A DNA stretch of 64,000 bases from Oscillospiraceae bacterium (GCA_015063885.1 SVTH01000009.1:32110-96109); one strand, 5' to 3'; positions 738-58,640 are shown, counted from the first letter of the stretch. Made by a program: numbers and translations. Notes: a model not told the origin generated them from the letters alone.

Positions 738-774
738 GATCGTTTCCTTTCTTGGGGATTTTTTTGGGGGGATG

Positions 775-2060
775 CGGGAGTACGAAGGGGGTGCCATACC
801 CTCAAAAAATGCTTGGCATTTTTTGACTCTTATTCGGACTCACGCCACTCATAAGAGTTCGACGCGTGCGGGGTGTTTCCTTGTGCACAGCCGCGACGGC
901 TCTATCCCGCACTCGCTCAGAGTGACCAAGTCGGCGAATGGGTGCGGAATTAAAGGTAGCGTCAGTACGCCGACGTTAAAAACGGCTTCGCAGTTTTTTC
1001 AACCGTAGTGCCGTTTGTAGAGCAAAGTTCGTGCTATACGTAGCGGTTTTGCTACCCTTACCCTACGATTGTCATTCTGAGCGGAGCCGCGGAGAAGGGT
1101 GTAAGGATAGAAAAACGAAGGCTCTCCCGCGGCGGAGTCGAAGTTTTGCGGAAGGAGCGTAGCGGATGGAGCAAAACCGCCGATAGGCGGGATCTCCTCG
1201 GAGTTAGATGTACCTTTCCGAGGGTAAAGAACTGTTTTTCACGTTACGAAAAAGATGTAAGTTTACGTCCAAAGGGGTTGGATCTAAATGTAACGAGACC
1301 CCTTGCGGTTTCGCTTTCCGAAATTGCTGTGGAAGACAAAACCGCATCCAAGATTTCGGGGCAATTTCGAAAAGCAAAACTTCGACGCGGCAGGGGGGAG
1401 TACTGCAGCAATCCTATCAAGCGTACGGTGCCCCCTGCCTTGCTCAGGGTGACGTGCCGGGGTGGTGTTCGTGCTTTTCGTAGCGTTTTAACCCTTCTCG
1501 CCCCAGGACTGTCATTCTGAGCGGAGCCGCGGAGAAGGGTGTAAGGATAGGAAAAAGGCGGCTGTCCCGCGGCGGAGTCGAAGTTTTGCGGAGAAAGCAA
1601 GGCACGTTAGTGCCGTTCGGGGCAAAACCAAGGGGCGTATATCGCCCCGCAGGGATATGGTAGGGAGTTAGATCAACCTTTTTTGTAACGTAAGAACTGT
1701 TTTAAGTAACTGACGGAACGGAAAAAGCGGTATAGCAAATGGGGTGCCATACCCTCAAAAAATGCTTGGCATTTTTTGACTCTTATTCGGGCTCACGCCA
1801 CTCATAAGAGTTCGACTCGTGCGGGTTATTTCATTGTGCACAGCCGCGACGGCTCTATCCCGCACTCGCTCAGAGTGACAAACAGGGGGTAGCGGTTGTG
1901 CTATACGTGGCGTTTTCCCGCGCAACGCTTTGCTCGTTCTTGCGCCCTATACAAAACGCCGCTAACGCATCGTTTTTCAACTGCAGTGCCGTTTGCAGGG
2001 CACTGTAGCGGCAGCTGTAAACGTTACGTCATTTGCGCCCTACACAAACCTCCGCCGCTT
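775..2060 (+). repeat. tandem array (about 2 units plus extra modules) of a composite structured intergenic repeat, family 1
   Basis: Module X (GCCATACCCTCAAAAAATGCTTGGCATTTTTTGACTCTTATTCGG..CTCACGCCACTCATAAGAGTTCGAC...CCCGCACTCGCTCAGAGTGAC) occurs at about 790-925 and 1745-1885. Module Y (TGTCATTCTGAGCGGAGCCGCGGAGAAGGGTGTAAGGATAG...CGCGGCGGAGTCGAAGTTTTGCGGA) occurs at about 1068-1160 and 1510-1600. The same units occur reverse-complemented at 31571-32535. Confidence 0.9.
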
Positions 2061-31352: not shown

Positions 31353-31532
31353 ATGAACGAAGGGCAGAAAAAGCAGGTTCCTCTGCGCCTTTCCCCCAAG
31401 CTGTACGCGGCGTTGTCCGCTTGGGCCGAGGAGGAGTTCCGCTCGGTGAACGGGCAGATCGAGTACCTGCTCACCCAATGCGTTCGCAAGCGGGAAAAGG
31501 GCAAGGATGCGGACGAGGAAGAAGAATCATGA
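31353..31532 (+). CDS. small ribbon-helix-helix (Arc/CopG-like) protein, 59 aa
   Basis: Hand translation: [59 protein letters not shown]. The [11 protein letters not shown]...A pattern is a typical RHH beta-strand plus two helices. It starts 4 nt after the SPFH stop and is below the ORF-track length cutoff. Confidence 0.55.
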
Positions 31533-31536
31533 CGAA

Positions 31537-31567
31537 GGGGAGCTTCTGCGGAGGCTCCCCTTTTTTT
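31537..31567 (+). terminator. rho-independent terminator
   Basis: GGGGAGC-(10 nt)-GCTCCCC followed by TTTTTTT. Confidence 0.75.
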
Positions 31568-31570
31568 GGG

Positions 31571-32535
31571 GGGACAATTCGTGAATCGCCCCTACTTTCA
31601 AACAGTTCTTACGTTACAGGAGGGTACATCTAATTCCCTACCATATCCCTGCTAATCCCCTTTCGGGGGGCTACGCACCCCTTGGTTTTGCTCCGAACGG
31701 CACTAACGTGCCTTGCTTTCTCCGCAAAACTTCGACTCCGCCGCGGGACAGCCTTCGTTTTCCTATCCTTACACCCTTCTCCGCGGCTCCGCTCAGAATG
31801 ACAGTCCAAGGGAAAGAACGGCAAAAACGCTACGCATATCGACAACACAACCCCTGTTTGTCACTCTGAGCGAGTGCGGGATAGAGCCGTCGTGGTTGTG
31901 CACAAGGAAACAACCCGCACGAGTCGAACTCTTATGAGTGGCGTGAGCCCGAATAAGAGTCAAAAAATGCCAAGCATTTTTTGAGGGTATGGCTACACAT
32001 TTGCACTACCGCTTTTTTCCGTTCCGTCAGTTACTAAAAAACAGTTCTTACGTTACAAAAGGATACATCTAATTCCCAACCATATCCCTGCGGGGCGCTA
32101 CGCACCCCTTGGTTTTGCTCCGAACGGCACTAACGTGCCTTGCTTTCTCCGCAAAACTTCGACTCCGCCGCGGGATTACCTTTTCTTTCCTATCCTTACA
32201 CCCTTCTCCGCGGCTCCGCTCAGAATGACAATCCTGGGGCGAGAAGGGTGAAAACGCTACGCATATGGACAACGCCACCCCCTGTTTGTCACTCTGAGCG
32301 AGTGCGGGATAGAGTCGCCGCGGCTGTGCACAATGAAACAACCCGCACGAGTCGAACTTCCGCGCATGGCGTGAGCCTAAGCGGAAGGCAAAAAATGCTA
32401 AGCATTTTTTGAGGGTATGGTTACACATTTGCACTACCGTCTTTTCCGTTCCGTCAGTTACTATAAAACAGTTCTTACGTTACAGAAGGGTACATCTAAC
32501 TCCCTACCATATCCCTGCGGGGCGCAAAGCACCGT
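31571..32535 (-). repeat. tandem array (2 full units plus a partial third, period about 427-439 bp) of family-1 structured repeat, inverted relative to 775-2060
   Basis: Unit landmarks CATCTAA at 31627, 32066 and 32493. The reverse complement of 31850-31995 matches 1745-1890 with only about 5 mismatches in 145 nt. Confidence 0.9.
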
Positions 32536-32700
32536 GGAGGACGACGTGGCGGATTGGAATATTGCCGTCTTCCCCTTCAACTACGAAGAGGAGACCTACC
32601 GAGATCTGGACAACTTCGAATAAACCAAAGCCTTCCGAAAGGAGGGCTTATTTTTTGCCCTTTCCCCGCCGAAAAACCTTAAAAAATTCAACTGTTCCTA

Positions 32701-37547: not shown

Positions 37548-37905
37548 GGGAAGGTCAGCGTCGGACCCCCTCAGTCACGGCGTGTCCGCCGTGACAGCTC
37601 CCCCTTTGACAAGGGGCAGCCTTTCGCCGCCCCGCAGGGGGATTGTTTCGTTCGTGTCAATGGGCAATGCGGGGTAAAATTCGTTTTTCGCCGTTCACGA
37701 TGCGGGAAACATGGGGACCGGAATTTTACCAATGCCCCCTTCGTTTCCGTAGGGGGCGACGTCCACGGCGCCCCACCCTGCGGGAGGCAAGGCACGTATT
37801 CCAACCAACGCCCCCTTCGTTTCCGTAGGGGTTGACGTCCACGGCAACCCATCCTGCGGGCGGCGAGGCAGGAATTTCAACCAACGCCCCCTTCGTTTCC
37901 ACATA
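37548..37905. repeat. cluster of family-2 intergenic repeats (tandem about 77-85-bp units)
   Basis: CCCCCTTCGTTTCCGTAGGGG(G/T)(C/T)GACGTCCACGGC...CCTGCGGG..G..AGGC repeats at about 37735, 37812 and 37888. It matches units at 27230-27330 and 8840-8900 (inverted). Confidence 0.85.
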
Positions 37906-58339: not shown

Positions 58340-58640
58340 TTGCAAGCCCCATACCAAACGGGCGATTCGTGAATCGCCCCTACTAAAAGGGGCGGATTGA
58401 GTGCGGAGATATGCCGACCTTTGCTAAGGCGCATACCAAACTCACTCCAACATGTTCACCCATTTCCCGCGCGGAAACGAACCGCCGTGGCTACATACGA
58501 GAATGCAACTCCGCACACGTCGAACTTCTGTGAGTGACGTAAGTCCGAGCAGAAGTCCCGAATCGCCTCGCGCTGAGGGAGGGTATAAGACGAGTCTGAT
58601 CTACCCCTTCTGTAACGTAAGAGCTGTTTTGAAAGGAGCG
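58340..58640. repeat. repeat cluster (family-2 palindrome plus family-1 module fragment)
   Basis: GGGCGATTCGTGAATCGCCCCTAC at 58360-58383. TTCTGTAACGTAAGAGCTGTTTT at about 58608 resembles TTTGTAACGTAAGAACTGTTTT in family-1 units. Confidence 0.7.

Follow-up and report, generated by a model that had tools for sequence, protein, structure and literature searches.

What kind of sequence is a non-coding repeat whose hairpin stems are replaced outright between copies and still pair? The question is raised by a 64,000-nucleotide stretch of DNA from an Oscillospiraceae bacterium (GCA_015063885.1 SVTH01000009.1:32110-96109), here called the window, which lies within contig C17 of the assembly analyzed (G000; 2.14 Mb, 85% complete). 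In the window a 427-bp unit, which we call family 1, is present in 2.2 head-to-tail copies at 31577-32533. An earlier note on this DNA had offered a structured RNA, a protein-recognized DNA hairpin, or an element of the MITE (miniature transposable element with inverted repeats) or REP (repetitive extragenic palindrome) type. Our analysis suggests, with a probability of about one half, that family 1 is a non-coding, non-autonomous mosaic repeat that acts through folds of single-stranded DNA. It would belong with MITEs, bacterial interspersed mosaic elements (BIMEs), Neisseria intergenic mosaic elements (NIMEs) and BOX. Among the three options, a MITE/REP-type repeat or a DNA hairpin thus fits best, and a structured RNA is unlikely. 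This preference is based on the intergenic, lineage-restricted and high-copy occurrence of the repeat, its inverted repeats, the turnover of its sites, the Watson-Crick compensation in its stems, and the lack of an Rfam match and of a promoter.

Fold of the unit and its stem alleles

The array contains two full units, at 31664-32090 and 32091-32517. They are preceded by a partial unit (model positions 376-427, about 31600-31651) and followed by the start of a third, a cut F hairpin that extends up to about 32533. The register was set with blastn and nhmmer, and the array is a k-mer island at C17:63686-64642. Tandem Repeats Finder reported a period of 427 bp and 2.0 copies with 88% matches over 31664-32533. 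The anatomy of the unit is derived from an alignment of 20 full units and from consensus folds. On the plus strand, which carries the array and the features below, the order is F, E domain, J1, P4, S5, linker, S3, P2, J2, C, B and A domain. Coordinates are those of unit 1 unless stated otherwise.

The F hairpin (GGGGNGC-NNN-GCACCCC) and the E domain occupy 31665..31730. In the E domain, GGTTTTGCTCC...CTCCGCAAAAC surround the hairpin GGCAC-TAAC-GTGCC, whose stem has two alleles in the 20-unit alignment, GGCAC/GTGCC and GGTGC/GCACC. The right-end module (31730..31802), seen in folds and alignments, consists of J1 (CTTCGACTCC, 31730-31739), the sub-terminal hairpin P4 (GCCGCGG at 31740-31746 with CCGCGGC at 31781-31787) and the terminal inverted repeat S5 (CGCTCAGAATGAC, 31790-31802). 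Viewed from the other strand, it is the 'module Y' whose pairing arms the earlier note had described. A linker of ~57 nt (31803..31859), with 4-6 discrete alleles and a conserved core CGCTACG(Y)ATA, separates it from the next element. The left-end module (31860..31929) appears in consensus folds and in the minimum free energy (MFE) and centroid folds of both strands. It is composed of the terminal inverted repeat S3 (GTCACTCTGAGCG, 31860-31872), the sub-terminal hairpin P2 (GTGCGGG at 31874-31880 with CCCGCAC at 31914-31920) and J2 (GAGTCGAAC, 31921-31929). The P2 pairing GTGCGGG...CCCGCAC had been noticed before and is found at 31874-31920 and 32302-32348.

Hairpin C follows at 31928..31960, with the outer stem CTCTTAT/ATAAGAG (allele 1, spanning 31929-31959) and the inner hairpin GGC-GTGA-GCC. 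The same position in unit 2 (32357..32387) holds allele 2, CTTCCGC/GCGGAAG. Hairpin B, CAAAAAATGC-CAA-GCATTTTTTG, occupies 31961..31983 and again 32389-32411. Its core AAAAAATGC-NNN-GCATTTTTT is present at 31962-31982 and 32390-32410, as first noticed. Hairpin B is symmetric, was given no strand, and looks like a bidirectional terminator. The A domain (31984..32090) closes the unit with a predicted long-range stem of AGGGTATGG with CCATATCCCT around a hairpin at AACAGTTCTTACGTTACA.

S3 pairs with S5 and J2 with J1, so that S, P2, J and P4 make a four-way junction. For either strand, the MFE fold and the centroid fold both contain the junction, and the hairpin chain continues beyond it. Both strands (z = -3.1 and -2.9) fold better than their own shuffles. 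Two sister species carry the element singly, in a form of about 355 bp that extends from GTCACCCTGAGCA to TGCTCAGGGTGAC. This identifies S3 to S5 as the natural element, bounded by terminal inverted repeats of 13 bp, and the 427-bp unit here as such an element plus a linker of roughly 70 bp. The terminal inverted repeat is imperfect in G000 (GTCACYCTGAGCG...CGCTCAGAATGAC). Arrays usually have S3 at the start and end just past S5.

Hairpin C best illustrates the exchange of stems. The form ACTCTTAT-17 nt-ATAAGAGT is found at 826-858, 1779-1811 and 31928-31960, and the different but complementary form CTTCCGC-17 nt-GCGGAAG at 32357-32387, as the earlier note had claimed. The loops of the two versions, GAGTGGCGTGAGCCCGA and GCATGGCGTGAGCCTAA, are similar. 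The swap is real, but it is not a single event: the two stems are discrete alleles, with 41 motif matches for allele 1 and 32 for allele 2 in this genome. Relatives add at least four complementary stems to the two in the window, which makes at least six. The outer stems are CTCTTAT/ATAAGAG, CTTCCGC/GCGGAAG, CTTCCGT/ACGGAAG, CTGACAAT/ATTGTCAG, CTGTGG/CCACAG and CTTCTGC/GCAGAAG; the inner stems are GGC/GCC, GGT/ACC and GAC/GTC. Hairpin B likewise has the compensated variants AAAACTGC/GCAGTTTT and AAAAACGGC/GCCGTTTTT. For P2 and P4, nine or more stems with perfect complementarity are known, and their loops measure either about 33 nt or 3-4 nt (among the stems are GCCGCGG, GTGCGGG, GGCAGGG(A), GGCAGGGGG, GCGCGG(A), GTGCGGAA, GCAGGC, ACGC and GCCC). 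An unusual trait of the family is that whole stems are swapped between near-identical flanks and intermediates are almost absent.

Covariation was assessed on 32 distinct J2-C-B sequences from this genome and about 9 related species, and is supported. In the C (outer and inner) and B helices, 97.5% of cells are paired, compared with 85.2% in column shuffles, and none of 500 shuffles reaches 97.5%. Pairing falls to 33-52% when the partners are slid. Two-sided changes are found in 12 of the 20 pairs (94 cells), and one-sided wobble cells number just 5. The stem alleles share one position within otherwise near-identical units, which excludes the possibility that unrelated sub-elements were joined by chance. 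Structure is maintained, and this extends to every helix. To call stem replacement the 'classic signature' of selection is nevertheless too strong, because the alleles are discrete cassettes that reassort by recombination and template-switch correction is also possible. In DNA palindromes, such correction can keep the arms complementary without selection. The structural reading of the unit is robust.

Modules also reassort almost freely between copies. Each has 2-6 alleles, 26 allele combinations are seen among 27 near-full units, and the four-gamete test finds every combination in 23 of 28 module pairs. Mean identity is 87.0% to the array neighbor and 90.8% to the best unit elsewhere, and the neighbor is the closest unit in just 3 of 14 cases. 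The arrays are thus not simple local duplications, and segments have probably been exchanged between copies across the genome.

A sister repeat family of ~410 bp is located on C6 (61340-61741, 84880-86100 and 98430-98838). It has the same S/P/J end modules as family 1, and its inverted repeat GTCACCTTGAGC/GCTCAAGGTGAC represents a compensated change. The interior carries the AACAGTTCTT motif in the opposite orientation. Two smaller components were also seen. In some copies (G000 C18:57980 and C17:27346; L049, L077) the terminal arm GTCAYYCTGAGC is broken by an additional small hairpin (19-27 nt; CCAACCC-TGC-GGGTTGG and CCCAGCCC-GTT-GGGCTGG are examples), which may be a still smaller inserted element. 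Another module family, CAAGTCGGCG...GCCGACGTTAAAAACGGC-NNN-GCCGTTTTT, adjoins family-1 elements in all species looked at and joins either element end in mirror orientation. It is located at about 940-1010 and 1920-2000 in the window, and at loci L096 and L097 of two other carriers, G012 and G060.

Genomic copies and their orientation

Family 1 gives 119 blastn pieces and 150 nhmmer matches in the assembly. They form 37 regions that cover 29 kb, roughly 1.4%, on contigs C6, C8, C13, C16, C17, C18 and C22, with up to about 5 units per array. All sites are intergenic. A k-mer map (k=18) indicated ~74 kb of repeated, mostly non-coding DNA in total, about 3.5% of the assembly, so several repeat families coexist. 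Other multi-copy non-coding islands of 0.8-1.7 kb lie outside family 1, at C22:101488-102782, C22:46716-47675, C22:71181-71999 and C6:35682-37421. In the window, a second family-1 island at 773..2001 (C17:32882-34110) is in the minus orientation, is mixed with other repeat modules and carries the C hairpins at 826-858 and 1779-1811. A solitary plus-strand fragment, an nhmmer match at C17:90611-90721, occupies 58502..58612. A 76-bp tandem repeat (2.3 copies, 88% identity) at 37728-37900 lies downstream of a large LPXTG adhesin gene.

The seven contigs with copies total 1.17 Mb, and none is found on the remaining about 1 Mb, including C1-C5, C14, C20 and C21. The repeat-bearing contigs have a much weaker replication-type skew at third codon positions (GC3). 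The cause could be a domain effect at the level of the chromosome, rearrangements that scrambled it, or binning that was uneven. Many copies are located at contig ends. A coding role was rejected, as reading frames differ between adjacent units and allele lengths differ by non-multiples of three; open reading frames called in the arrays (for example ...CHSERSRGEG...) are spurious. A CRISPR-like or toxin-antitoxin repeat array was rejected as well, the variable parts being a few recurring alleles and not unique spacers.

Eleven sites are between convergent genes and 3 between divergent genes, a preference that many intergenic repeats show. With respect to the flanking genes, orientation follows no rule, 12 arrays being co-directional with both neighbors and 9 running against them. 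Orientation is coherent between neighboring arrays, and it flips at the presumed replication origin. To the left of 131 kb on C6, each of the 13 arrays or fragments has '+' orientation. On the right side, the four located at 133-153 kb are '-', and a fifth, at the contig end, is '+'. Orientation changes at dnaA-dnaN-recF (C6:128919-133181; genes confirmed by Pfam), where total GC skew also changes sign. The dnaA-dnaN gap contains three DnaA boxes. Fisher's exact test gives P = 0.0016 for 13/0 versus 1/4 (our own arithmetic), and 17 of the 18 arrays on this contig follow the replication orientation bias. Synteny in a relative (L054) places the right ends of C6 and C8 next to each other. With the two contigs so linked, three further '-' arrays would be gained and the two exceptions would become a single array. 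When elements from relatives are placed on the C6 frame, they are '+' at 9 of 12 left loci and '-' at 3 of 3 right loci. Other contigs could not be oriented by GC skew, because the third-position skew (about -0.15) follows the coding strand and the replication component is weak on array-bearing contigs. Arrays flank dnaA-dnaN-recF on both sides in opposite orientations (C6:127683-133877), and an element adjoins dnaA in at least three other species (L047, L063, L069, L073). The strongest DnaA-box cluster, 7 boxes with <=1 mismatch in 600 bp at C16:202514-203100, is far from dnaA and shows no skew change.

This placement raises the possibility that family 1 serves the host as DNA, in the form of protein-bound cruciform or hairpin clusters or of bidirectional terminators or insulators, its polarity reflecting a chromosome-level role. 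The preference for convergent genes, the orientation flip at dnaA and the element beside dnaA in four species are consistent with it. Terminator-like hairpins, namely B, F and the inner E hairpin, are five times as frequent as expected from shuffled sequence. BIMEs bind IHF, gyrase and Pol I, according to PMC3184786. A host function is difficult to reconcile with the 54 of 61 genomes of the genus that have no family 1, and half of the present assembly has no copy. Content, copy number and even orientation vary at one locus between close species, and one array destroyed a gene (see below). We consider such a role distinctly unlikely.

The two strands of the unit are not equivalent. In every one of 20 units, the minus strand has the better fold (-79.5 versus -71.7 kcal/mol with DNA parameters), and the corresponding values with RNA parameters are -166 and -144 kcal/mol. 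G-T/G-U pairs are commoner in the minus sense (646 versus 222 cells). If replication starts at the presumed origin at dnaA, the minus strand would be the lagging-strand template. A mosaic repeat could spread and be reshuffled in two ways, by recombination between copies and by one strand, presumably this better-folding template, folding on itself at the replication fork. Complementarity would be kept either because the fold itself is recognized or because palindrome arms are corrected against each other. Recombination between copies would subsequently spread whole stem alleles.

Transcription signals, mobilizers and turnover

The same strand asymmetry would also be expected if the hairpins and the junction were selected as RNA, in a structured non-coding RNA or a cis-acting untranslated-region module for which the unit's minus strand would be the one transcribed. 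All helices show strong covariation; it is equally expected of a DNA fold. The minus sense, with its better fold and its excess of G-U type pairs, would be co-directional with replication. The inner loop of C on the plus strand is GTGA or GTAA, which is GNRA-like, in two of three allele groups; this loop and the wobble excess are on opposite strands. The comparable Firmicutes repeats bcr1 and BOX are transcribed, according to PMC3184786.

Other observations argue against RNA. Rfam 15 contains no family that reaches gathering score over the window, and none matches even at E up to 10 over 31500-32700, where the only matches are weak ones to the flanking terminators. This agrees with the earlier failure to place the unit in a known RNA family. 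The sbrA-like match near the array is the terminator hairpin at 31537..31567 (plus strand), an intrinsic terminator of the upstream operon encoding SPFH and ribbon-helix-helix proteins. The array begins only downstream of this terminator and sits between it and the next gene. Promoter-like sites are not in excess over shuffled sequence. A likeness of CTGAGCGAG...GAGTCGAAC to the hammerhead is superficial, with wrong spacing and no Rfam match, and other ribozymes are likewise unmatched. An RNA gene would not usually exceed 100 copies, leave ragged partial copies or occupy sites that differ by species. Compensation in C, B, P2 and P4 is almost purely Watson-Crick. An RNA product therefore seems unlikely. 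Family 1 looks more like selfish or structural repeat DNA than like an RNA gene, because its distribution is lineage-restricted, high-copy, intergenic and fast-changing, its terminal inverted repeats are common with the sister family, its compensation is of the Watson-Crick kind, and its orientation is not tied to transcription of the neighbors.

Family 1 is restricted to a small clade of gut Clostridia. Among GTDB species representatives, exact matches to a 26-base motif that covers hairpin B and the first part of A were found only in metagenome-assembled genomes (MAGs) of uncultured Clostridia/Eubacteriales, about 9 species, from the guts of sheep, roe deer, yak and buffalo and in three 'SGB' bins. 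Seven of 61 genomes of the genus match. G000, G012, G048 and G060 have many copies, and three others have one or two. Family 1 was not found in 16 other families of the order or in 80 metagenome loci of more distant relatives. A plasmid, phage or viral origin was rejected, as the plasmid, phage and IMG/VR collections gave no match.

Sites turn over between close relatives. For the window locus, the metagenome scan gave relatives at <=80% protein identity only, and these have no family-1 copy; the nearest MAG, G077, with 98-99% identical flanks, does not contain the locus. G012 and G060 do (L096, L097), with flanks 92-94% identical to G000. Their intergenic space holds at most one element plus other repeat modules, and downstream of it is an intact membrane-protein gene of about 235 aa. 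In the window, only the last 31 codons of this gene remain (32529..32623, plus strand), followed by the gene's own terminator (32628-32655, plus strand). The remnant is fused to the cut F hairpin through a 5-nt microhomology, GCACC. A deletion that removed most of the gene thus accompanies the array and has destroyed the gene. The site C16:88367/88368 is uninterrupted in G000 and filled by a partial element of 190-250 bp in two other species (L049, L067), and about 12 loci are filled only in relatives. Content or orientation at the same locus differs between species. In a MAG with 98.9% identical flanks (L059), the array beside C8:120163 differs in register and structure. Arrays are restructured faster than their own flanks.

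Several results weigh against a mobile mosaic repeat. The earlier note had suggested target-site duplications as a sign of mobility; none was found at the filled/empty sites, C16:88367/88368 included, or at the array ends inspected. There are no sharp termini, as array ends are ragged or merge into other repeat modules. No autonomous partner with the same inverted repeats was found in G000 or in three carriers, and no multicopy transposase gene in the G000 assembly. The Y1 transposase domain of IS200/RAYT (PF01797) is absent from G000, G048 and G060, three of the four high-copy carriers, and none of the four has IS110-type DEDD or TnpB (PF07282) domains. At five shared loci the element is inverted between species, and the polarity comes mainly from one contig and a presumed origin. 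Wobble asymmetry and orientation bias would also fit an RNA from the minus strand.

Y1 is present in many non-carriers and does not track the repeat across the 61 genomes. RAYT/IS200, IS110 and TnpB were accordingly rejected as mobilizers, being not found in carriers or uncorrelated with the repeat. The search for IS91 was uninformative, since its control matched nothing anywhere. Such absences are weak evidence because MAGs under-assemble insertion sequences. A slim chance remains for something new: a mobile or amplifying DNA that is recognized as a folded single strand at the fork and moved by the host or by an undescribed enzyme, or else an undescribed large structured RNA in tandem. The former would explain the oriC polarity, the head-to-tail arrays, the lack of target duplication and the lack of a known hairpin-type transposase.

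The linker points to one more explanation, site-specific recombination cassettes of the integron/CALIN or Xer type, in which a 427-nt circle with the linker core would integrate at core-like sites. Arrays are strictly head-to-tail. Most start near model position 161 and stop near 175-186, with the core AAAACGCTACGTATA at both ends. The core CGCTACGTATA is found 96 times, compared with 23 times in the control, and each of the 71 that lie near an element has the orientation of that element. Structure is conserved over sequence and orientation is biased relative to replication, as is known for attC sites. Against this, free attB-like cores were rejected, as the 25 outside arrays are at chance level (23 in the control). 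The filled/empty sites inspected do not break at the core, many units are partial, and no dedicated recombinase was identified. We regard cassettes as very doubtful, and return to the mosaic repeat that we favor.

Known repeats compared

Family 1 is small (355 bp), non-coding and high in copy number (150 matches), has inverted repeats and varies in presence between genomes, as MITEs do; unlike them, it shows no target duplication at the filled/empty sites and array ends inspected. Among known repeats, those called bcr in the Bacillus cereus group (bcr1 at about 155 bp; group B members such as bcr5 at 310 bp) resemble it in being interspersed intergenic Firmicutes repeats of 100-400 bp. They also have a cruciform-like predicted fold with compensatory changes, and their sites are not conserved between close strains (PMC3184786). 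Unlike family 1, bcr1 has 5-bp direct repeats at its ends, is transcribed and forms no long head-to-tail arrays. The text consulted reports neither reassorting module alleles nor replication polarity for bcr1, and the comparison is one of descriptions. BOX of Streptococcus pneumoniae (boxA-boxB(n)-boxC) is modular and MITE-like, with a tandem internal module, strong predicted structure and a length of up to 637 bp (PMC3184786). BOX repeats just the 45-bp boxB, whereas family 1 repeats the whole 427-bp unit. BOX is thought to be mobilized by a known insertion sequence, and none was found for family 1.

BIMEs/REP and REPINs of Proteobacteria are palindromic, intergenic, arranged in mosaic clusters and favored between convergent genes, all as in family 1. 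REP units are 20-40 bp long, carry a GTAG or CGTC tag, alternate in orientation and are associated with a RAYT (Y1) gene. Units of family 1 are ten times larger, at 427 bp, and strictly head-to-tail, and Y1 is missing from the three high-copy carriers named above. NIMEs share with family 1 the intergenic arrays, a limited set of blocks, a short conserved separator and shuffling by recombination, and both are often next to surface-protein loci. Unlike family 1, NIMEs consist of 70-200-bp blocks bounded by the dRS3 inverted repeat, and they have no counterpart to its four-way-junction element and linker core.

IS200/IS605 elements and integron attC sites are folded single-stranded DNA recognized by structure rather than sequence. 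They resemble family 1 in this fold, in the lack of target duplication and in an orientation biased relative to replication. The polarity and the better-folding strand on the presumed lagging-strand template recall single-strand transposition at the fork, but the defining enzymes are missing here: neither a Y1 transposase nor TnpB nor an integron integrase is linked to family 1. Its ends are inverted repeats, which those of IS200/IS605 are not. An IS200/IS605-derived element (PATE) therefore agrees with the orientation bias but not with the ends or the enzymes. Insertion sequences in Firmicutes show family-specific orientation bias, according to PMC3971601. The attC sites measure 57-141 bp, have R and L boxes and bound cassettes; the size of family 1 and its lack of cassette genes do not fit, and the likeness to integron attC/CALIN is one of principle, by description. 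As described in PMC3184786, bcr, BOX, BIME and NIME have no head-to-tail unit of 427 bp, no four-way junction made by the ends of the element, no freely reassorting stem alleles and no origin-centered polarity. No description of the family-1 element was found in the literature, where a full-text search for the terminal motif gave unrelated work only.

Most interspersed mosaic repeats known so far come from Proteobacteria, Neisseria, pneumococci and the Bacillus cereus group. With family 1, uncultured Clostridia of the ruminant gut provide an example that is large and ordered to an unusual degree. In practice, its arrays break MAG assemblies, seed deletions such as that of the truncated gene, and yield spurious open reading frames. 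With complementary alleles that reassort, a conserved junction and an orientation that flips at the origin, it offers a system for studying how repeats keep their folds and spread.

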